Part shown: positions 4,093 to 50,691 of the stretch, piece after piece
Layout of the letters: each line of letters begins with the position of its first letter
How positions within the stretch are numbered: the first letter of the stretch is position 1
UHGV virus genome: UHGV-0350099
Origin: a virus
DNA length: 61,496 nucleotides
Reading direction: 5' to 3' (one strand)
Position numbers and translations under genes: made by a program
The notes under the pieces: model-generated
Database searches by the model: none
What the model saw: only the letters and a program-made list of their open reading frames with translations
What the model was told of the DNA's origin: nothing

Positions 4093-4875
4093 GTGCCAAT
4101 TGTCGGTGTTCCCGGTTGGATTGGGTCTTCGGCTGTCAGTGTGACAGGCCAGAGATGGATGAGTGCGGCTCGAACGGCGGTGCAACTGCCAGCGGCTGGT
4201 TCAATGTCTCAAATGGCCGGGCGATCTAAAGAAGTTCAGTACAGCATCGGTGCGAATCATAACTACAACAAAGACACACTGATCAACTATTTAAAATCCC
4301 AGGGGGCGACGCCAGTCGTTGTTACCATTACAGGGGATCTGGTGTCGTCCAGTAGCGGCGTGCCATGTTTAGATTTCCCGAGTTCACTTACCAACTCTTA
4401 TATCAGCCTTGTAATCAACGCAGGTGTGACTGTCTATGGACGCGGTGGCAATGGTGGTAGTAACGCTGCCGGTGCTGCTGGTGGTAACGCAATTAATAAT
4501 GGCATCGGTACACGCTTGCGTATTACGAATAATGGTGCAATCGCTGGAGGTGGTGGCGGCGGTGGCGGCGGTAACAGGGGTCGACTAGTATTTGGTGGTG
4601 GCGGTGGGTGCCCATTCGGTGCTGGTGGGTCTTCCTCTCATATGAGTTCCGGTGCAACTGCTGGTACTATTTCCACTCCTGGTAAGGGATCTGTTGGTGA
4701 GGGGTCTCTTAGTGCATATACAGGCGGTTCGGGTGGTAATGTCGGTGCTGCTGGAGGAAGATGTAATACTCAAGGTAACGGTACAGAATATAACGGCGGA
4801 GCAGCTGGTAAAGCTGTTACTGGTAATGCTCCAACTTGGACTAAAGTTGGAGCAATTTACGGCGCTCATGTGTAA
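4093..4875 (+). CDS. Glycine-rich protein, possible tail fibre tip/receptor-binding or fibre-associated protein
   Basis: ORF frame 1; start moved to GTG 4093 after RBS AAGGAG (4079-4085) because ATG 4036 lies inside a hairpin; long poly-Gly tracts; position directly after tail fibre. Confidence 0.4.
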   Translation: MPIVGVPGWIGSSAVSVTGQRWMSAARTAVQLPAAGSMSQMAGRSKEVQYSIGANHNYNKDTLINYLKSQGATPVVVTITGDLVSSSSGVPCLDFPSSLTNSYISLVINAGVTVYGRGGNGGSNAAGAAGGNAINNGIGTRLRITNNGAIAGGGGGGGGGNRGRLVFGGGGGCPFGAGGSSSHMSSGATAGTISTPGKGSVGEGSLSAYTGGSGGNVGAAGGRCNTQGNGTEYNGGAAGKAVTGNAPTWTKVGAIYGAHV

Positions 4876-4949
4876 GTACTTACCTACCAAGTGTGGGCGT
4901 TTTATGATATAAATCCGCCATCCCGATTTGACTTTTCACGGAGGAAAAC

Positions 4950-5273
4950 ATGTCGAACGAGATGGCGGGCGTTACAACAGAGCAAGTTGAGCGTATTGCC
5001 GCGATCGTTGCTCGGGAGGTTGTTGGCAAATTAGGTAAAGAGCTACGTGAAGAAATTGGCCAGGAGGTCAATGATCAGCTGAAAACCTACTTTGGTGATA
5101 TGACCCCGGCGCAACATAGTATTCAACACTCCAATCTGGACAAACTCCTTAACCGGTTAGATTCCATCTCAAGTGGGTTCTTTGGCGGCATTGTTTCTAA
5201 AATAACGTCGTTCATTATTACCGCACTGCTTTTGGGGTTAGCCGCGTATGGCGTAAAAAGTGGACTGCAATAA
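4950..5273 (+). CDS. Small protein with C-terminal transmembrane helix; possible holin
   Basis: 107 aa, single hydrophobic C-terminal segment ITSFIITALLLGLAAYGV; sits immediately upstream of putative endolysin and spanins. Confidence 0.3.
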   Translation: MSNEMAGVTTEQVERIAAIVAREVVGKLGKELREEIGQEVNDQLKTYFGDMTPAQHSIQHSNLDKLLNRLDSISSGFFGGIVSKITSFIITALLLGLAAYGVKSGLQ

Positions 5274-5286
5274 CAGGAGATCAAGG

Positions 5287-5979
5287 ATGAAAACTCCGAG
5301 AGGCATTCGTAATAACAACCCTGGCAACCTCGACAAAGGTTCGCCGTGGCAGGGGCTAATCGACAACCCTGCCGAACCGCGCTTTTGCACGTTTAAAGAC
5401 CCTGTTTGGGGGATTCGTGCGCTGGCGGTGACTCTAATTACCTACCACGACAAACGTCGCGCAAAAGACGGCTCAAGTATCGATACCATTCGTGAAGTTA
5501 TTGAACGTTGGGCACCGCCGAATGAAAACAATACTGACGCCTACATTAATGAGGTGTCTAAAGCCGTTGGTGTAACCGCAGACATGATTATCGATCTGCA
5601 TGATTACGACATTCTTCGACCTTTGGTTGAGGCAATCATTCGCCATGAGAATGGGCGAGGTCCGCTAAAAACGCTGAACACCTGGTATGCGGCAGAAGTT
5701 ATTGAGGAAGGTCTGCGTCGAGCTGGCGTTGTTAAGCCGGCGAAAACCGTGAAGGCTGTTCCTGTAACTAAAGAAACCGCAGGCGCAACTGTTACAGCAG
5801 GTATTGGTCTGGCGCAGCTGGCCGATGTTATGCCGCAGGTTTCCGCTGCTATGGATAAAGCACAAGGTCATATCTCTAGCGGGGATACAGTACGCATCAT
5901 CTTCGGTATTGCCACTATTGTTGTGGCAGGATTCATTGCCTGGTCGCAGGTAAGAAAACACCAGAAAGGGATGGTCTAA
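5287..5979 (+). CDS. Putative endolysin / cell-wall hydrolase (by context), C-terminal hydrophobic segment
   Basis: RBS AGGAG then ATG 5287; lies between putative holin and Rz/Rz1-like pair; no catalytic motif recognised with certainty. Confidence 0.4.
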   Translation: MKTPRGIRNNNPGNLDKGSPWQGLIDNPAEPRFCTFKDPVWGIRALAVTLITYHDKRRAKDGSSIDTIREVIERWAPPNENNTDAYINEVSKAVGVTADMIIDLHDYDILRPLVEAIIRHENGRGPLKTLNTWYAAEVIEEGLRRAGVVKPAKTVKAVPVTKETAGATVTAGIGLAQLADVMPQVSAAMDKAQGHISSGDTVRIIFGIATIVVAGFIAWSQVRKHQKGMV

Positions 5980-16708: not shown

Positions 16709-16730
16709 GATAAGTATTTACTTACTTATC
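16709..16730. promoter_or_regulatory. Palindromic intergenic motif GATAAGTATTTACTTACTTATC (dispersed family)
   Basis: Near-perfect palindrome of TAAGTA/TACTTA half-sites; one of about 15 similar intergenic sites. Confidence 0.5.
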
Positions 16731-19155: not shown

Positions 19156-20259
19156 ATGAAAAATAGCTTTGACAGAGCACGCGCTGCGGAGAACACCTCA
19201 AAAGAGGCGATTGAGTATCTCGAAAGAGCATCTCAAATGCAGGCCGTTATGATCTCGCAGGTTAGCAATGACATGAGATTCTCGGACGCATTCATGTTAT
19301 TCACTCGCTTATCTCTGCTGATAACCAGACGTCGGCCAGAGATCGCTGTTCATTGTATTTTGATACATGTTTTTCCGCACATTGCCGATGTAAAAGTAAG
19401 TGATATTAATAGGTTCATGGTGAACCAACTGGTCAACCCACTAATACTGGATGGCAAAATTGTTATGGGCCGCCGCGTTTTCTCTCTGATGAAGCAGTTC
19501 CTTAGCTGGTGCGCCTTCCAGGGGATGATAGACGTGTCACCGTTAAACGATATGTCACTTAACAAAGTTGCCGGTGGCGCAAAGCCCACGCCCCGCGAGC
19601 GGAAGCTGACTGACGCAGAGGTATGGGTGTTCTGGAATATATGGGACTACTTCAATGTGTGCGCTGGTACAAAATGGGCGGCCAGACTGTGTCTTGTATC
19701 AGCAAGACGACCTGACGAAGTACTGCGGGCTAAAAAAAGTGAGTTCAATCTTAAGCGTGGAGTTTGGAATCAAGGCAAGAGAAACAAGTCAGCACGTGAG
19801 CATTCGCTGCCTTTAAGCACATTAATGCGCACATGCATTGAAGAGTTGTTCGAATACGGTAAAGACAGCCAGTGGCTCGTGCCTTCGAATAAAAAAATCG
19901 GGAAAGACCTTCCTATGTCTAAAGTGGCAATAGCCCAGGCATTACGTCGTATTCTGGAACGACCAGAACTGATGGAGCTTGAGCCATTTACACCCCGAGA
20001 TTTGCGCCGTACTGCGCGTAGTTACTTCCCAGCATTAGGCATAAGCCAGGAGGTATCACGCAAAATCATGAACCACAGTCTTGAGGGGATAGATCGGGTC
20101 TACGACCGGCACGATTATATGGACGAGATGCGAGACGCCTTAGAAAGTTTCTCGACGTACATCGCATCAATCGTAGAGCAACCGGATTTAGACGAAATTG
20201 ACCACAAATTTAAGGGAGATCGTCTATCAACAGAGCTTATTCGTGTAAATTTTTCATAG
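19156..20259 (+). CDS. int: Tyrosine recombinase / phage integrase family protein
   Basis: 367 aa; C-terminal catalytic-domain pattern ARRPDEV...HSLPL...RDLRRTARS...HSLEGIDRVYDRHDY consistent with R-H-R-Y integrase fold. Confidence 0.7.
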   Translation: MKNSFDRARAAENTSKEAIEYLERASQMQAVMISQVSNDMRFSDAFMLFTRLSLLITRRRPEIAVHCILIHVFPHIADVKVSDINRFMVNQLVNPLILDGKIVMGRRVFSLMKQFLSWCAFQGMIDVSPLNDMSLNKVAGGAKPTPRERKLTDAEVWVFWNIWDYFNVCAGTKWAARLCLVSARRPDEVLRAKKSEFNLKRGVWNQGKRNKSAREHSLPLSTLMRTCIEELFEYGKDSQWLVPSNKKIGKDLPMSKVAIAQALRRILERPELMELEPFTPRDLRRTARSYFPALGISQEVSRKIMNHSLEGIDRVYDRHDYMDEMRDALESFSTYIASIVEQPDLDEIDHKFKGDRLSTELIRVNFS

Positions 20260-20640
20260 AGACTTTATGGCCTCAACAACCTTTTGTGATGCGCCTTTCT
20301 CTTTACCGAATCGCTCGTTATATGCAGCAAGAACCTGTTTTTCGTCCTCGTTAAGAGGAGCAGTGCCTTCTTTGTATAAAAATGCTGCGAGTTCGGGTTG
20401 GCGTTCTTCCAGCACCATCATCATAAGACGACTTGGCTCAATACCCAGCGCCAGCGCCAACGGACGAACCTTATCGATAGGCAAAGGAATTTTGCCACTT
20501 TTAATTAAAGAAAGGTTGTTGGCATTTTTGTAACCAATAAGTCTGGCTATTTGGGCCTGACTCATAGGTGAGGATTCAATCAACCCTGCGATAAAAGCAG
20601 CGTAGCGACTTTCTATAAATTCAATCTTGTTATCAGACAT
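20254..20640 (-). CDS. XRE-family HTH transcriptional regulator (candidate phage repressor)
   Basis: 128 aa; N-terminal HTH MSQAQIARLIGYKNANNLSLIKSGK; convergent with integrase; palindrome GGTAAGTGCTTACC in its upstream region. Confidence 0.6.
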   Translation of the reverse strand: MSDNKIEFIESRYAAFIAGLIESSPMSQAQIARLIGYKNANNLSLIKSGKIPLPIDKVRPLALALGIEPSRLMMMVLEERQPELAAFLYKEGTAPLNEDEKQVLAAYNERFGKEKGASQKVVEAIKSL

Positions 20641-23327: not shown

Positions 23328-23349
23328 GATAAGTAACTACTTACCATAG
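23328..23349. promoter_or_regulatory. Palindromic intergenic motif GATAAGTAACTACTTACCATAG
   Basis: Member of dispersed TAAGTA/TACTTA motif family. Confidence 0.45.
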
Positions 23350-30729: not shown

Positions 30730-30758
30730 GATAGATAATAAGTAAGTACTGATCTATC
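30730..30758. promoter_or_regulatory. Palindromic intergenic motif GATAGATAATAAGTAAGTACTGATCTATC
   Basis: Member of dispersed TAAGTA/TACTTA family, upstream of SSB-like gene. Confidence 0.45.
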
Positions 30759-33143: not shown

Positions 33144-35483
33144 ATGGCAAAAGGAAAATCCGCACTGGCACTTGCTCTGAAAAAGAAAATCGGTAGCAAC
33201 GACGAAATTCAGAAAGTAACTCATTGGATTGATACAGGCTTTCCACCGTTAAACAAAGCTATTTCTGGTCGTTACGATGGCGGCTTCCCATGTGGTCGTA
33301 TCGTCGAAGTATTCGGTCCACCAAGCGCGGGGAAATGTGTTACCGCAGACACCATGCTGCTGACGGAGCGTGGAATGGTAACAGTGAAAGAGTTGTTTGA
33401 GATTGAAGGGTACAAAGCGACATGCACTACTCGCGATGTAGAGCATAACGTTGGACTCATCAATGAAAATGGCGTGATAGAGAAGACCTCACACCTGACA
33501 TGGAACAACCGTCGCAAATTCAAGCGTATTAAGCTGGCATCAGGCGGTTATATCGAGGCTACGTTCCGTCACCCAATCCGTGTGGTTGACGACTTAGGTA
33601 ATGTCGTCTGGCGACATGCTGAAAAAATCAGTGTAGGCGACACGATTCCTTCAATGGTTGGCACACATCAATTCGGCGATCAGCACCTGGATGCCAATAT
33701 CGCAAAACTGATGGGCTATTTAATTGCTGACGGATACGTGGCCTCTGAAAATTCAGTGAATTTTTCTAACACAGATCCTTTCATCAAGGATGAGTACTAC
33801 CGCCTCATTTCGCTGGTATCAGACAAGATGCCAGTTGCGAGAAAACATAACGGCTCGGAAGACCATGTGCTGTTTAGCAAAGAGGTGCGTTCGCTGCTTT
33901 TTAAAGAATATGGTCTGGAGTATGAGAAAGCTGCTGGCAAGCAGGTTCCGTTGAGTGTGCGTCGCGCCAATAGCGAGGCTCAAATTGCATTCCTTCGCGG
34001 CTACTTTGAGCTGGAATGCCACGTCAATGATGGTCGCTGCATTGAGGTTGTGAGCGCGAGTGGGCTGCTGCTACAGCAAATTCGCCTCATGCTCCTGAAT
34101 CTGGGGATTACGTCAACTATCTCTGAAAAACACGTCGCGGGTTATGAAAATACATATTACCGGCTGTCATTCAGTGGCTCTAATTACGACCTTTTTCTGT
34201 CAACGATTGGTTTCGAATCTCCGGCACGTTTATCAGTGGCAACCAAACGGGACATTGGTTTTGACCGCACTTACTCAGGCTATGTTCCGCACATCAGCGG
34301 CTTAGTGAAATCACTCTACGAGTCGCTCACCAAGACCACCCGTGAAGACTACGCTCTGGTAGACCACGTTATTGGCCGCGGCGATCGTGTCGGAATAGAC
34401 AAACTGCGAGAAATCTATGTCTCCTTCATTGGCAGAAAGAATCGTTTTAACGAGCATCTGTTTGCACAACTGGCAGCGGTAATTGGCTCTAACTTGTTCT
34501 ACGACGAAGTCGTGGCTATTGAGGAAGGTGAAGCACCAACGTTCGACGTAGCGATGCCGGAAACACACTCTTTCTGGTCTAACGGGATTATCAGCCACAA
34601 CACATTCCTTGCAACAGCAGCGATGATCTCCGCTCAAAAACAAGATGGTCTGGCGGTATTCCTCGATCATGAAAACAGTTTTGACGTTGGCCTGGCTGTA
34701 GCCAATGGCCTGAACGCAGATGAGGATGACGGTCAGTGGGTATACAAGCAGCCAGATACCTTCGAAGACTCTGTAGAGTTGATCGGCACAATACTTAAAT
34801 TGGTTCGTGATGAAGAGCTTATCCCCGAATCAGCACCTATCTGTATCGTGGCTGACTCTCTTGCGTCTATGGTTCCGAACTCCAAAGCCGAGAAGTTCGA
34901 AAAGATGGCTGAAGGCACAGCCAAAGACAAAGATCAGCTAAACATGAACGACAATACGGCACTGGCTCGTGCGACGAGTGCGAACTTCCCTACTCTGGCT
35001 TTGTGGGCACGCAAATACAACGCCTGCATCATCTTCTTGAATCAGGTTCGCACAAAAATCGGTGTAATGTTTGGCGACCCTACTACGTCGCCAGGTGGAG
35101 ATTCACCGAAGTTTTACGCTTCTGTGCGTATCCGTCTTGGTGCATCGGTGATGAAGGATGGTAAAGAGAAGATCGGCCAGGACGTAGGCGCAGAATGCAT
35201 CAAAAACAAAGTTGCACCACCGTATGGCAAATGCACCTGGAAATTCTACTTCGATCCTACTCGTGGCCTCGACGTTATCGAATCGCTCGTCGAGTACATG
35301 CTGGAAGAAGGATACCTGCCAAAGAACGCCAGCGGGCGAGTTGAAATTGGTGACAAGAAATACACCAAATCGCAGATCGTCGAGATGTATCGGGAGAAGC
35401 CACTGGCTGAAATCATTGCGGCTTTGCAGGCAATCGACGACCGAAGAGCAAAAGACAACCCCACCGAGTCAGTAGAAGAGTAA
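33144..35483 (+). CDS. recA: RecA-like recombinase interrupted by an intein
   Basis: Exteins: GRIVEVFGPPSAGK|...|TFLATAAM, AVFLDHENSFD, CIVADSLASMVP, IFLNQVRTKIGVMFGDPTTSPGGDSPKFYASVRIRLG match RecA core motifs. Confidence 0.85.
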   Translation: MAKGKSALALALKKKIGSNDEIQKVTHWIDTGFPPLNKAISGRYDGGFPCGRIVEVFGPPSAGKCVTADTMLLTERGMVTVKELFEIEGYKATCTTRDVEHNVGLINENGVIEKTSHLTWNNRRKFKRIKLASGGYIEATFRHPIRVVDDLGNVVWRHAEKISVGDTIPSMVGTHQFGDQHLDANIAKLMGYLIADGYVASENSVNFSNTDPFIKDEYYRLISLVSDKMPVARKHNGSEDHVLFSKEVRSLLFKEYGLEYEKAAGKQVPLSVRRANSEAQIAFLRGYFELECHVNDGRCIEVVSASGLLLQQIRLMLLNLGITSTISEKHVAGYENTYYRLSFSGSNYDLFLSTIGFESPARLSVATKRDIGFDRTYSGYVPHISGLVKSLYESLTKTTREDYALVDHVIGRGDRVGIDKLREIYVSFIGRKNRFNEHLFAQLAAVIGSNLFYDEVVAIEEGEAPTFDVAMPETHSFWSNGIISHNTFLATAAMISAQKQDGLAVFLDHENSFDVGLAVANGLNADEDDGQWVYKQPDTFEDSVELIGTILKLVRDEELIPESAPICIVADSLASMVPNSKAEKFEKMAEGTAKDKDQLNMNDNTALARATSANFPTLALWARKYNACIIFLNQVRTKIGVMFGDPTTSPGGDSPKFYASVRIRLGASVMKDGKEKIGQDVGAECIKNKVAPPYGKCTWKFYFDPTRGLDVIESLVEYMLEEGYLPKNASGRVEIGDKKYTKSQIVEMYREKPLAEIIAALQAIDDRRAKDNPTESVEE
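33336..34601 (+). mobile_element. Intein (422 aa) with LAGLIDADG homing endonuclease, inserted in the RecA P-loop
   Basis: Begins with Cys right after GPPSAGK, ends HN followed by Thr; LAGLIDADG-like LMGYLIADGYV and FLRGYFELECHV. Confidence 0.8.
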
Positions 35484-35487
35484 ACAC

Positions 35488-35513
35488 AAGGCGTCCACAG
35501 GACGCCTTTTTAT
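35488..35513 (+). terminator. Rho-independent terminator (AGGCGTCC/GGACGCCT family)
   Basis: AAGGCGTCC-ACA-GGACGCCTT followed by TTTATCT. Confidence 0.6.
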
Positions 35514-35524
35514 CTCTTGAAAAT

Positions 35525-35544
35525 ATATAAGTACTTACTTATAT
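35525..35544. promoter_or_regulatory. Palindromic intergenic motif ATATAAGTACTTACTTATAT
   Basis: Member of dispersed TAAGTA/TACTTA family. Confidence 0.45.
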
Positions 35545-35573
35545 TTTCGCATAACAACCACATAGGAAAACAC

Positions 35574-35774
35574 ATGATCAAAATCTATCTATTGGCAGTA
35601 GCCACAGGCCTTTCAGTGGCTCTCATCTACGGTTTACTGGTTCCGTCGCTGATTTCTACCAAGAGTGATTTAGCCGTCATGTTTGGAGTTATCGTTGGTT
35701 TTGGTGCTCCTGTAATCGGTCTTATTGCTGGTCGTAAGTTTATCAACTCATTAATCAAAGCAAAGGGGAAATAA
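35574..35774 (+). CDS. Small membrane protein (two predicted TM helices)
   Basis: Start at ATG 35574 after GGAAAACAC; hydrophobic segments LLAVATGLSVALIYGLLV and VMFGVIVGFGAPVIGLIAG. Confidence 0.4.
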   Translation: MIKIYLLAVATGLSVALIYGLLVPSLISTKSDLAVMFGVIVGFGAPVIGLIAGRKFINSLIKAKGK

Positions 35775-35777
35775 GTA

Positions 35778-36608
35778 ATGAAGAAAGGTTTACTTGCAGT
35801 TGCTCTGGCGGCTATTTGCACAATGGGTCTTACTGGCTGTGATCGCGTGGAGCCTGGATACGTTGGCATCAAAGTAAACAAATTAGGTGAAGACAAAGGG
35901 ATTGGTGAAGTGGTTGGCGTTGGTCGCCAATGGACAGGTCTTAACACCGAACTTTACGTATTCCCGACCTTCAAACAAATGAAGACCTACGACGAGCCGT
36001 TCACATTCCAGATGAGTGACGGTACTGCTATTGGTCACAAAATTGGCGTTGCGTATCTGGTTAATCGTGACAAGGTAACGACGGTGTTCCAGACCTATCG
36101 CAAAGGCGTAGACGATATCACCGAATCAGATCTGCGTCAGAAAATTGCCGACTCTCTAAACCGTTTGGCCAGCCGTATGACCACTGACTCATTTATCGAC
36201 GGTGGTAAGGCACAATTGCTGGACAACGCACTGAAAGATATTCAGAAAGAGATGTCTCCGGTTGGTATTGAGGTACTGAGCCTGTCATGGGTTGGAAAGC
36301 CTGATTACCCAAAAACTGTCATTGAATCTATTAACGCCAAAGTAACGGCTAACCAGCGTACTCTGCAACGTCAGCAGGAAGTTGAACAACGTAAAGCTGA
36401 GGCGAATATGCTACGTGAACAGGCTAATGGTGAAGCTGATGCTATCCGTGCTCGTGCGCAAGCAGAAGCAGACGCCATTCGTCTGCGCGGTGAAGCTCTG
36501 CGTCAAAACCCGAACGTTATGGAACTGGAAGCCATCAATAAATGGAATGGCCAGTTACCGCAGTACATGACTCAAGGGGCTAACACTCCTTTCATTACAG
36601 TGAAATAA
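35778..36608 (+). CDS. SPFH/band-7 (prohibitin/stomatin-like) domain lipoprotein
   Basis: Signal peptide with lipobox LTGC; SPFH-like core followed by Ala/Glu/Arg-rich coiled coil (EADAIRARAQAEADAIRLRGEA). Confidence 0.65.
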   Translation: MKKGLLAVALAAICTMGLTGCDRVEPGYVGIKVNKLGEDKGIGEVVGVGRQWTGLNTELYVFPTFKQMKTYDEPFTFQMSDGTAIGHKIGVAYLVNRDKVTTVFQTYRKGVDDITESDLRQKIADSLNRLASRMTTDSFIDGGKAQLLDNALKDIQKEMSPVGIEVLSLSWVGKPDYPKTVIESINAKVTANQRTLQRQQEVEQRKAEANMLREQANGEADAIRARAQAEADAIRLRGEALRQNPNVMELEAINKWNGQLPQYMTQGANTPFITVK

Positions 36609-36625
36609 CTCCCCTAAAAAGTTCA

Positions 36626-36649
36626 GGCGTCCAGTTGGACGCCTTTTTT
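36626..36649 (+). terminator. Rho-independent terminator (AGGCGTCC/GGACGCCT family)
   Basis: GGCGTCC-AGTT-GGACGCC followed by TTTTTTA. Confidence 0.65.
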
Positions 36650-36666
36650 ATCGCAATTATCTTATT

Positions 36667-36687
36667 AAGAAAACAATTTGTTTAAAA
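36667..36687. promoter_or_regulatory. AAACAATTTGTTTAA palindrome upstream of 36700 gene
   Basis: AAGAAAACAATTTGTTTAAAA followed by GGATAAGAAAACATG. Confidence 0.5.
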
Positions 36688-36699
36688 GGATAAGAAAAC

Positions 36700-37125
36700 A
36701 TGACAGCTATTAAGAAACTCTACGATGCCGCAAACGTGGCTCTGGATGTTATTGATGATGAAGTAGCAAAAGGCTTTCCTGAACCTGATTGGGCGCATCA
36801 GCTACGAAACGCTATCGCAGAAATGACCCCACCAGATCCAACCCCCGACGAGACAGACTGGCAGCGATTCATCCGTATGTACGCTCAGGAAATAGGTCCA
36901 ACGCCAACGGCAGAGCAGGCAATGCTGCTGAAATACTTCAAAGAGGCGGGAGAGGATTTACCAATTGATGACTCAGCATATTGGTTCCACTGCGCATGGC
37001 GTAAGTATGACGTGATATTCACACAAGGCATGGGAAGCAAAGATATGGTTGTGTGGCATCTACTCCATATAGACACAGCCGTTGACAGAGTTATTGAACA
37101 GTTTTTCCCTAAACAAGAAGATTGA
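36700..37125 (+). CDS. Hypothetical protein
   Basis: 141-aa ORF preceded by AAACAATTTGTTTAA motif. Confidence 0.5.
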   Translation: MTAIKKLYDAANVALDVIDDEVAKGFPEPDWAHQLRNAIAEMTPPDPTPDETDWQRFIRMYAQEIGPTPTAEQAMLLKYFKEAGEDLPIDDSAYWFHCAWRKYDVIFTQGMGSKDMVVWHLLHIDTAVDRVIEQFFPKQED

Positions 37126-37180
37126 TCGCCTATTCATAACTAACAAAATAAGTAAACACTAACCACAAAAGGAAAAACAC

Positions 37181-37456
37181 ATGAGAGTTTTAGTTCGAAT
37201 CGTTACCAGCACTGTCTATGACGTGTTTCCGCTTTTTATGGTCAAAGCCGATGGCCTTAACGACGAAGAAACTGACGCGCTGATCCAGCGTATTCTCGTT
37301 GAATATACAGGTCATGACGCTGATTCAGTGATGGTTGATGATGATGGTGTTTGTTGGCATAACGGCAACTGTTGGTACGTAGAAGAGACTCAACAAATCA
37401 GTGATGAAGATGCCGAACATCTTGAGCGTATTTTAAGCATCAGCACTTTTGAGTGA
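37181..37456 (+). CDS. Hypothetical acidic protein
   Basis: 91-aa ORF with conserved AAAGGAAAAACACATG start context. Confidence 0.5.
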   Translation: MRVLVRIVTSTVYDVFPLFMVKADGLNDEETDALIQRILVEYTGHDADSVMVDDDGVCWHNGNCWYVEETQQISDEDAEHLERILSISTFE

Positions 37457-37495: not shown

Positions 37496-37675
37496 ATGAA
37501 GATTTTTATTGAATACTTGTTACTCATCGTTTCAATAGCTTTTGTCATCGACTGCATTTTCACTGGTGTCATTCGTAAAGTCTTTTCCCCGGTGCACGAC
37601 GTAGTCATAAACGCTTTGGCTATCGTGCTCGTATTTAATTCAGCATTTGATGTAATCAAAGAGGTGGCAGCATGA
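37496..37675 (+). CDS. Small membrane protein (about 59 aa)
   Basis: Unlisted short ORF MKIFIEYLLLIVSIAFVIDC...; ATGA-coupled to next gene; preceded by palindromic motif. Confidence 0.3.
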   Translation: MKIFIEYLLLIVSIAFVIDCIFTGVIRKVFSPVHDVVINALAIVLVFNSAFDVIKEVAA

Positions 37676-38007
37676 AGGCCATCCCATTCGCGCTGTTGTT
37701 CCTTTCTTCGATCGTTGTGGCCGACACCACTGTTTATCAGTGTGAAATGTCTGTAGCCGACGTTAAGAATGGCGCTCTTACCGACGTCATAAAAGCACCA
37801 TATGGAGCGATGGTCGTAGACAGCGGCGACCAGTTCTATGTTGTGCGTGACGATCGAGTGTTGTCATCCCCATATCTCACAAATCGTAATGGCAAATTAA
37901 CCGGCGTCGGAGAAGACCACTTCGTATACAACAAATACAAGGGCTTCTATGGCGTTCACGCTTCTCAGCAAAGCTACCTTTTCGATGACTGCAAGGAGGT
38001 TGGATAA
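37672..38007 (+). CDS. Secreted protein (signal peptide)
   Basis: N-terminal MKAIPFALLFLSSIVVA signal-like sequence; 111 aa. Confidence 0.45.
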   Translation: MKAIPFALLFLSSIVVADTTVYQCEMSVADVKNGALTDVIKAPYGAMVVDSGDQFYVVRDDRVLSSPYLTNRNGKLTGVGEDHFVYNKYKGFYGVHASQQSYLFDDCKEVG

Positions 38008-38219
38008 TGGCATTAACACTGGCAGGTCTGGAAATCGAGAAAACAAGCGGCTACTGGCGTGCTAAGGGTTTCAAGCAGCCTGGCATTCTTGAGCGTCTGG
38101 AACGTGAAGATGGGTATATCGTCCACCAGCGGCGTGAATGGCGTATGTACGATCCAGAAACAGGAAAACTGACTACAAAAGCCGGAACACTTTGGGGTCT
38201 GTTGAAGAAAATACACTAA
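38007..38219 (+). CDS. Hypothetical small protein
   Basis: 70-aa ORF, ATGG-coupled to previous gene. Confidence 0.4.
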   Translation: MALTLAGLEIEKTSGYWRAKGFKQPGILERLEREDGYIVHQRREWRMYDPETGKLTTKAGTLWGLLKKIH

Positions 38220-45957: not shown

Positions 45958-45978
45958 GATAGGTAAGTGCTTATCTAT
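45958..45978. promoter_or_regulatory. Palindromic intergenic motif GATAGGTAAGTGCTTATCTAT
   Basis: Shares GGTAAGTGCTTA core with the palindrome upstream of the XRE repressor. Confidence 0.5.
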
Positions 45979-50673: not shown

Positions 50674-50691
50674 AATAAGTGGTTACTTATC
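50674..50691. promoter_or_regulatory. Palindromic intergenic motif AATAAGTGGTTACTTATC
   Basis: Member of dispersed motif family, directly upstream of thyA. Confidence 0.45.

Follow-up and report, generated by a model that had tools for sequence, protein, structure and literature searches.

A conserved gene pair for a predicted SPFH lipoprotein and a small two-helix membrane partner in an SSU5-like phage-plasmid

Introduction

SPFH proteins occur in every domain of life, yet what they do is poorly understood, and their cage architectures have been solved only recently. UHGV virus genome UHGV-0350099, a stretch of 61,496 nucleotides that is hereafter called the window, raises the question of why a phage should carry a gene for such a protein. 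Between positions 35574 and 36608, two adjacent open reading frames (ORFs) encode a small membrane protein and an SPFH lipoprotein. A reading made from the letters alone (the sequence-only reading) had proposed exactly these two products, and both identifications were borne out by profile searches. The two features are as follows.

35574-35774, + strand: 66-amino-acid inner-membrane protein with two helices (PHROG 1130, partner profile, natural fusions)
35778-36608, + strand: 276-amino-acid SPFH lipoprotein (Pfam Band_7, PHROG 200, AlphaFold2, Foldseek)

Comparison of loci across phages, plasmids and bacterial genomes indicates that the two genes are a real, conserved functional pair and constitute one module. 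Here we describe the evidence for the pairing, the predicted fold and membrane orientation of the products, the boundaries and regulation of the cassette, and a tentative explanation of its role.

Results

The two genes form one module

A hidden Markov model (HMM) of the partner, built from known examples, was applied to 188 loci that together contain 49 distinct SPFH sequences, the most distant at ~32% identity. In 41 of the 49 distinct loci it detected the partner 5' of the SPFH gene and on the same strand, usually with a gap of 4-31 nucleotides. Inspection of the eight HMM-negative loci revealed, in four of them, an ORF with two helices and a recognisable form of the motif, which brought the total to ~45 of 49. 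In the rV5-like and LUZ24-like phages, one or two genes stand between the partner and the SPFH gene downstream.

The pairing is also evident in natural fusions, which were identified in 19 independent lineages: 18 among the top 150 SPFH cluster representatives and one in a close enterobacterial relative (P0021). In each case a single ORF encodes, in this order, the hairpin, a basic linker, the signal peptide with its lipobox and the SPFH domain. These sequences are strong evidence that the 66-amino-acid and SPFH proteins work together, probably in a 1:1 ratio. It is worth noting that in the window the two ORFs share one reading frame and are parted by TAA GTA alone (35772-35780); one base change would fuse them.

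The 66-amino-acid ORF begins with an ATG preceded by AGGAAA. A longer version of 85 amino acids, starting from a TTG at 35517, was considered and rejected: this TTG forms part of the -35 element in the promoter described below and has no ribosome-binding site, and 66 amino acids is thus the right length. The protein consists of hydrophobic helices at residues ~3-23 and ~32-52, in agreement with the two transmembrane segments of the sequence-only reading, and a basic C-terminal tail of 13 residues. It matched PHROG 1130 ("membrane protein") over residues 1-65 (E 2.1e-25). A Pfam search at E <= 0.1 returned no match, hence no NfeD domain (PF01957), and no precomputed Pfam domain was present in any of 120 relatives. 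In an alignment of 12 members of the family, Pro24, Ser28 and Gly38 are invariant, the first two belonging to the loop between the helices (P24-S-L-I-S28) and the third residing in helix 2. The partner evolves fast, being 59% identical to the SSU5 copy and 25% to the P88 copy, against 77% for the P88 SPFH protein.

A word-indexed homologue search with the 66-amino-acid protein alone recovered close relatives only, and a profile search recovered the 120 relatives mentioned above, all named "hypothetical" save for stray automatic labels (Holin, DUF3149, YeaQ/YmgE), which we do not trust. The partner ORF is present yet unannotated in the reference records of phiP27 (NC_003356; 2316-2504 of locus L006) and RCS47 (NC_042128; 2238-2474 of locus L007), and in phiEa104 a partner-like ORF (872-1081 of locus L092) is annotated merely as a shortened ORF at 965-1081. 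PHROG 1130 is an unnamed family, and this conserved small partner appears to have gone unnoticed previously.

The SPFH lipoprotein is predicted to be a cage protomer

The SPFH ORF starts 3 nucleotides past the stop codon of the 66-amino-acid ORF and is preceded by the ribosome-binding site AAGGGGA. Its product begins with MKKGLLAVALAAICTMGLTG-C-DR, in which residues 1-20 make up a signal peptide (MKK followed by a hydrophobic core) and L18, T19, G20 and C21 make up a lipobox, as judged with the pattern [LVI][ASTVI][GAS]C. The codon of Cys21 is at 35838-35840, and Asp22 follows it. The protein is therefore predicted to be lipidated and cleaved at Cys21. Of 144 cluster representatives, 128 retain the lipobox Cys, and the residues in front of it are L/[TSA]/[GAS].

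A Pfam search had been put forward as the means of refuting the SPFH assignment; the domain was found, with PF01145 Band_7 matching residues 23-209 at E 2.6e-30 and 106.2 bits against a cut-off of 23.6. PHROG 200 ("lipoprotein") matched residues 1-275 (E 3e-108). The AlphaFold2 model, with a mean predicted local distance difference test score (pLDDT) of 93, displayed an SPFH alpha/beta domain at residues ~21-176, a 65-residue helix at 179-243, a short helix at 245-255 and a tail. A C-terminal K-W-N-G-x-L-P motif is strongly conserved in the family, and among 106 SPFH sequences W256 and G49 are invariant.

Foldseek comparison with the PDB ranked HflC and HflK first, followed by prohibitin and erlin, with stomatin, flotillin, the vault protein and QmcA later in the list. 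The top matches were 7vhq_G and 7vhq_E (HflK/HflC), at E ~5e-14 and with 16-18% identity to HflK/C. Profile comparison with solved structures gave prohibitin (PHB1) at E 9e-12, HflK at 8e-7, HflC at 4e-6 and QmcA at 7e-5. Our structure models are of single chains. All of the top PDB fold matches are protomers of SPFH cages; because all of these structural neighbours form rings or cages and the C-terminal K-W-N-G-x-L-P motif is conserved, an oligomeric ring or cage is the most likely arrangement of the phage protein.

The only NCBIfam matches were HflC (TIGR01932; 30.2 bits, cut-off 134.4) and HflK (TIGR01933; 18.7 bits, cut-off 159.4). Scores so far under the equivalog cut-offs rule out an HflK/HflC orthologue. 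Several phage records label the SPFH gene "serine protease" or "transposase", and nothing in the analysis supports either label.

Membrane orientation

Three lines of evidence bear on the side of the membrane that the SPFH domain occupies. Of 120 close relatives, 96 read Cys-Asp-Arg at the lipobox, and Asp at +2 is the classical signal for inner-membrane retention in Escherichia coli. Secondly, the Cys is swapped for a hydrophobic residue in 16 of the 144 cluster representatives. In 15 close E. coli and other enterobacterial relatives (P0002-P0012, P0075, P0076, P0081 and P0082), 73-96% identical, single-base changes have turned it into Tyr, Trp or Phe, and the variants on E. coli plasmids occur on up to 175 contigs. 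Lipidation has apparently been lost repeatedly and its loss tolerated; judged by their sequences, an uncleaved signal helix would be the only possible anchor of the Cys-less variants, which places them in the inner membrane. The third line is the order of the natural fusions, which as read would require a hairpin with both ends inside (N-in/C-in) and an SPFH domain outside, a topology that fits the basic C-terminal tail of the partner. An AlphaFold2 model of fusion P0021 displayed three confident membrane helices (pLDDT ~73-88) and gave no contact information.

Because of the Asp at +2, the helix-anchored Cys-less variants and the fusion order, we infer that the SPFH domain is periplasmic on the inner membrane, like that of HflK/C. 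QmcA faces the opposite side, the cytoplasm, and the ranking of the solved relatives, with prohibitin and HflK/C above QmcA, fits a periplasmic topology. The HflK/C assembly is described, in a passage of one report, as one that "extends into the periplasm" (PMC12048511).

The pair is a cassette bounded by a direct repeat

A terminator scan located a hairpin on either side of the pair:

35488-35513, + strand: terminator T1, stem AAGGCGTCC/GGACGCCTT followed by a T-run, after the recA-like gene
36625-36650, + strand: terminator T2, stem AGGCGTCC/GGACGCCT followed by a T-run, after the SPFH gene

The hairpins are at 35488-35508 and 36625-36644, and their RNA folds have energies of -14.7 kcal/mol (z -6.9) for T1 and -15.1 kcal/mol (z -5.9) for T2. 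The two are the left and right copies of a direct repeat of ~25 bp, with the stem GGCGTCC/GGACGCC and the following T-run in common; the pattern GGCGTCC-N3-6-GGACGCC has just these 2 copies in the 61.5-kb window, against 0 expected. An Rfam scan of 35000-37200 at E <= 1 revealed no RNA element, the only matches being two chance-level small-RNA hits over a terminator, far under their gathering scores.

SSU5 has an identical cassette layout. The Enterobacter SSU5-like plasmid NZ_AP025838 carries neither gene and has exactly one copy of the terminator between recA and the next gene, and the pair is missing from an aligned Klebsiella relative (NZ_CP021714) as well. Since the pair is flanked by the repeat here and in SSU5, and a single terminator copy is left where the cassette is missing, these alignments indicate that the pair is an insertion/deletion unit of 1.14 kb bounded by the ~25-bp direct repeat. 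The cassette-less state may have arisen before a gain by insertion or after a loss by recombination between the repeats, both of which are compatible with the data. As the Enterobacter and Klebsiella SSU5-like plasmids exist without it, the cassette would be dispensable for plasmid maintenance.

A promoter with a repeated palindrome and conditional expression

Two further features lie between T1 and the 66-amino-acid gene:

35517-35545, + strand: sigma-70-like promoter, TTGAAA-N17-TATATT, 10/12 matches
35526-35543: palindrome TATAAGTACTTACTTAT (arms ATAAGTA/TACTTAT), between the -35 and -10 hexamers

The promoter is the best site in the 7 kb scanned, where the total of 10 sites was no excess over the shuffled mean of 10.0. 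Its -35 hexamer and spacer are kept in SSU5 and Cyrano despite a flank identity of ~78%, and the -10 hexamer there is TATCAT.

The 17-bp palindrome, which is also conserved in SSU5 and Cyrano, recurs in the window. Allowing up to 3 mismatches, 8 matches were found at 7 loci (4871-4887, 16709-16725, 23329-23345, 30738-30754, 35526-35543, 45959-45975 and 50674-50690), against 0.08 expected. The six loci other than that of the cassette lie between, or at the ends of, the ORFs listed for the window. At five of the seven, the palindrome is just 5' of a + strand gene, namely the ORF before the endolysin gene, the 23407 ORF, the 66-amino-acid gene, the 46024 ORF and the 50679 ORF. Synteny with Cyrano identifies the 46024 ORF as ribonucleotide reductase and the 50679 ORF as ThyX, and the Cyrano counterpart of the pre-endolysin ORF is annotated as a holin. 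The palindrome at 30738 is ~90 nucleotides upstream of the SSB gene, and that at 16709 has no listed gene close downstream. The palindrome is probably an operator or a phage-specific promoter element, a candidate mark of one phage regulon. A candidate repressor is encoded at 20254-20640 on the minus strand.

Published RNA-seq data on Cyrano, given as log2(fpkm+5), with fpkm the fragments per kilobase per million, show how the counterparts of the pair, CYRAN_56 and CYRAN_57, are expressed. Their values rise from ~2.3 and 3.7 in lysogeny broth (LB) to 7.65 and 7.33 at 6 h in macrophages, and the flanking genes stay low, with RecA at 4.05 and CYRAN_58 at 4.07 (PMC9928086, S1 Table). At 6 h in macrophages the pair is ~15-fold over its flanking genes. 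In the LB lysogen it is at background, and it is absent from the published list of morons, for which a level at least 5-fold above background was needed (PMC9928086). Since CYRAN_56/57 are silent in LB and high in macrophages while the flanks are low, the pair is, in this relative, a co-transcribed unit of its own, which is repressed during ordinary growth of the lysogen and switched on under particular conditions. The cassette appears to be under phage control and not constitutive.

Three small genes just 3' of the cassette (37496-38219, + strand), homologues of CYRAN_60-62, encode a 59-amino-acid membrane protein, a 111-amino-acid protein and a 70-amino-acid protein, the last annotated "P1 Cra" in Cyrano. 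In the same intramacrophage data CYRAN_60-62 reach log2 values of 8.3-9.0 at 6 h, against 2.3-3.7 in LB, and so exceed CYRAN_56/57.

Distribution of the module

The sequence-only reading regarded an SPFH lipoprotein as uncommon in phage replication regions. Our counts contradict this view: a tblastn search found SPFH homologues in 413 of 50,697 phage records, from more than 40 host genera, and a homologue is present in 737 of 5426 complete E. coli genomes (~14%), about equally on chromosomes and plasmids. The full SSU5-type pair was found in 195 of the 5426. Among the phage carriers are the P2-like P88, phiP27 and Stx2 phages, the P1-like RCS47, N4-like phages, rV5-like phages (PVP-SE1 and 4MG), LUZ24-like Pseudomonas phages, Erwinia phiEa104, Caulobacter phiCbK, Lak megaphages and crAss-like phages. 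With sequences clustered at 50% identity, an exhaustive HMMER search returned 2816 clusters at E <= 1e-3, of which 195 reached E <= 1e-30. The best 80 loci from a locus search with a 15-sequence alignment all came from close enterobacterial relatives.

In every annotated phage examined, virulent or temperate, the SPFH gene lies among early or DNA-metabolism genes, and among the same phages the pair was never beside lysis genes. P1-like phage-plasmids (RCS47 and others) carry a 75%-identical SPFH copy with its own partner between plp/upl and a dnaB-like helicase gene, where the SPFH copy is flanked by tRNA genes; classical P1 is not known to carry the module. Because these elements carry a similar SPFH gene together with a partner of their own, the module appears, on sequence grounds, to move between unrelated phage-plasmid families.

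The window and its other genes

The region of the window shares 99% identity with "Escherichia phage CMS-2020a" and 94% with Cyrano (pLF82), and identity of ~78% reaches Salmonella phage SSU5, ~107-kb Salmonella plasmids, which we take to be pHCM2-like, and ~101-kb Yersinia pestis plasmids, presumably pMT1. These identities indicate that the window is an SSU5-like phage-plasmid of E. coli. The neighbouring genes to which the text refers are:

33144-35483, + strand: RecA/UvsX-like recombinase with a LAGLIDADG intein (Pfam and PHROG profile matches)
36700-37125: DUF7238 protein, downstream of the SPFH gene
~4950-5979: endolysin (PHROG 873) and the ORF upstream of it (annotated holin in Cyrano), 30 kb from the pair

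Several small ORFs and repA are also near the pair, which in SSU5-like elements is situated between the recA-like gene and repA. The intein, which has a LAGLIDADG homing endonuclease, is inserted in the recombinase directly after the Walker-A motif (GPPSAGK/C...HN/T, with slashes at the intein boundaries). SSU5 has an intein-less recombinase of 358 amino acids, and the intein is present in some Enterobacter and E. coli relatives.

Discussion

A proposed role at the envelope

Taken as a whole, the data are best explained by a paired module in which an SPFH scaffold on the periplasmic face of the inner membrane serves an envelope-level role, an explanation that we hold tentatively and at a little under even chances. 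The SPFH protein would be exported, lipidated at Cys21 and retained in the inner membrane by the Asp at +2; with the SPFH domain starting two residues past the lipid anchor, it would lie flat on the periplasmic face of the membrane. The 66-amino-acid hairpin would supply the membrane-spanning helices that the processed lipoprotein lacks and act as a membrane-embedded "fence", the part played in HflK/C and the prohibitins by their own N-terminal helices. Its conserved Pro-x-x-x-Ser loop would be at the periplasmic surface beside the SPFH domain, where a direct contact may be made. The 65-residue helix and the conserved C-terminal motif would join the protomers in a ring or cage, which may enclose an area of inner membrane on its periplasmic face.

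What such a structure does is a guess; most likely it would act at the level of the envelope, either at an early stage of infection or, in the plasmid state, under stress. We favour this role because of the periplasmic orientation, the early-gene position, the dispensability for maintenance and the conditional expression. The module could shield or exclude at the inner membrane, for example against the entry of superinfecting-phage DNA or of other incoming DNA or proteins, or it could stabilise the membrane.

A number of observations weigh against this explanation. All 19 fusions keep the lipobox Cys, which makes internal initiation or cleavage at the internal lipobox a possibility, and the fusions may therefore be processed or internally initiated products and not stable fusions. 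Position +2 is not uniform in the family (T, E, S or D), which limits the Asp argument to the enterobacterial members. A scan of PADLOC-DB at E <= 0.1 gave no match for the SPFH lipoprotein or the 66-amino-acid protein, and a catalogued defence system was accordingly rejected. A constitutive exclusion function of the prophage is not supported, because the pair is at background in the Cyrano LB lysogen. A search of the full-text literature found no functional study of phage SPFH lipoproteins, and a phage paper of 2026 states that the reason for an SPFH gene in a phage genome "remains unclear". An SPFH survey of P. aeruginosa makes no mention of phage or lipoproteins (PMC13086221).

Alternative explanations

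The main rival, which we consider rather unlikely, is that the module mimics an FtsH modulator, forming or invading the periplasmic cage round FtsH and so altering the turnover of membrane and regulatory proteins of phage or host. HflC and HflK are indeed the top fold matches and the sole NCBIfam matches, the predicted topology agrees with theirs, and many temperate elements carry the module; set against this are bit scores of 30 against 134 and 19 against 159, the low identity to HflK/C, and the fact that strictly virulent phages, to which control of lysogeny is irrelevant, carry the module just as commonly. It is improbable that the protein is an outer-membrane or surface lipoprotein acting in lysogenic conversion or virulence, as Bor or PM0222 would. 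PM0222, an HflK/C-like SPFH protein from a prophage island of P. multocida, is found in outer-membrane vesicles and acts in TLR1/2 signalling and virulence (PMC9872710). This precedent, which may or may not belong to the present family, and the induction of the Cyrano pair inside macrophages are both in keeping with such a role. However, the Asp at +2 argues for inner-membrane retention, the helix-anchored variants and the fusions with an inner-membrane hairpin are incompatible with outer-membrane sorting, and the family is present in virulent phages, which are never resident in the host.

Three further readings concern lysis, replication and the partner itself. The size and two-helix topology of the 66-amino-acid protein are those of class II holins, and one Pseudomonas-phage UniRef entry is named "Holin", which could suggest a holin- or antiholin-like protein gated by an SPFH scaffold that sets the timing of lysis. 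That name is an automatic label without evidence, however, and since the endolysin gene and the holin-annotated counterpart are 30 kb away and the pair keeps apart from lysis genes in other phages as well, we give this reading little credence. The sequence-only reading had suggested membrane microdomains for replication, and the position of the pair between the recA-like gene and repA, like its adjacency to DNA-metabolism genes in other phages, could be taken in its favour. With three lines of evidence placing the SPFH domain in the periplasm, only the 13-residue tail of the partner would be cytoplasmic, and Enterobacter and Klebsiella SSU5-like plasmids persist without the cassette; a microdomain that organises phage or plasmid replication is hence very improbable. 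A role in replication or in lysis is, in sum, unlikely. The earlier comparison with SPFH/NfeD-type pairs holds as a loose analogy, in that the SPFH gene adjoins a gene for a membrane protein and QmcA-YbbJ (8z5g) is among the fold matches. A classical SPFH-NfeD operon, with an NfeD-type partner inside the cage, is nevertheless the reading in which we place least belief: the partner has no Pfam match, its 66 residues are filled by two helices and the 13-residue tail with no room for an OB-fold, and QmcA falls behind HflK/C and prohibitin in both profile and fold.

The explanation that we prefer, an inner-membrane scaffold with a small partner, can be extended to a more specific proposal, which we regard as doubtful. 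Here the module would be a hitherto unrecognised, phage-borne, two-component periplasmic cage, a viral counterpart of HflK/C deployed early by many phage families, which would exclude competitors or seize FtsH-dependent quality control; the fusions that keep the Cys may then be a polyprotein cut by signal peptidase II. If it is true, its exclusion variant would amount to a new mechanism of superinfection exclusion or anti-defence.

Significance

The SPFH gene is in itself ordinary in frequency and is already labelled in databases. What appears undescribed is the obligate small partner with its fusions, the HflK/C-like orientation that we propose, and the clean, regulated cassette. The module is a compact, mobile version of an SPFH system, one SPFH gene with a tiny partner, which has spread through virulent phages, prophages and phage-plasmids, its carriers including Salmonella Typhi-type plasmids and the ~101-kb Yersinia pestis plasmids. 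Should the product be a periplasmic cage, it would offer a minimal and genetically tractable model for membrane fencing by SPFH proteins, and would point to an envelope function needed by many unrelated phages. A practical consequence concerns annotation: the small partner gene is missing from that of some reference genomes, and the common "serine protease" and "transposase" labels lack support.

Comparison with known systems

The closest likeness is to HflK/HflC, which share with the phage protein an SPFH domain, a long helix and a C-terminal segment, as well as the predicted periplasmic side and an N-terminal membrane anchor. Unlike HflK/C, which are anchored by a helix, the phage protein is predicted to be anchored by lipid; it is encoded by one SPFH gene accompanied by a 66-amino-acid hairpin in place of two SPFH paralogues, and the module is carried by phages and phage-plasmids. 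Prohibitin 1/2, of the mitochondrial inner membrane, and erlin 1/2 are similar in that prohibitin is the best profile match among solved structures and both rank high among the fold matches. Both face a non-cytoplasmic compartment. They differ in being eukaryotic, helix-anchored hetero-oligomers of two SPFH paralogues without a small hairpin partner. In QmcA-YbbJ and other SPFH-NfeD systems the SPFH gene likewise adjoins a gene for a membrane protein thought to reside with or inside the cage (8z5g), whereas the phage partner has no NfeD OB-fold and QmcA stands at fold rank 38.

Two kinds of phage genes may also be compared. Like the morons of temperate phages, the cassette comes with a promoter and terminator of its own, is found in some sister elements and not in others between conserved neighbours and, in Cyrano, is transcribed independently; unlike them, the pair is off in the LB lysogen of Cyrano, its promoter carries the repeated palindrome of the phage, and it is a regular early pair in virulent phages. 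The envelope exclusion proteins of virulent phages, such as Imm and Sp of T4 and Llp of T5, are products of early genes and are small lipoproteins or components that face the periplasm at the inner membrane; kinship with the SPFH pair in sequence or fold would not be expected. Compared by description, they resemble the SPFH pair in the type of component and in early position.

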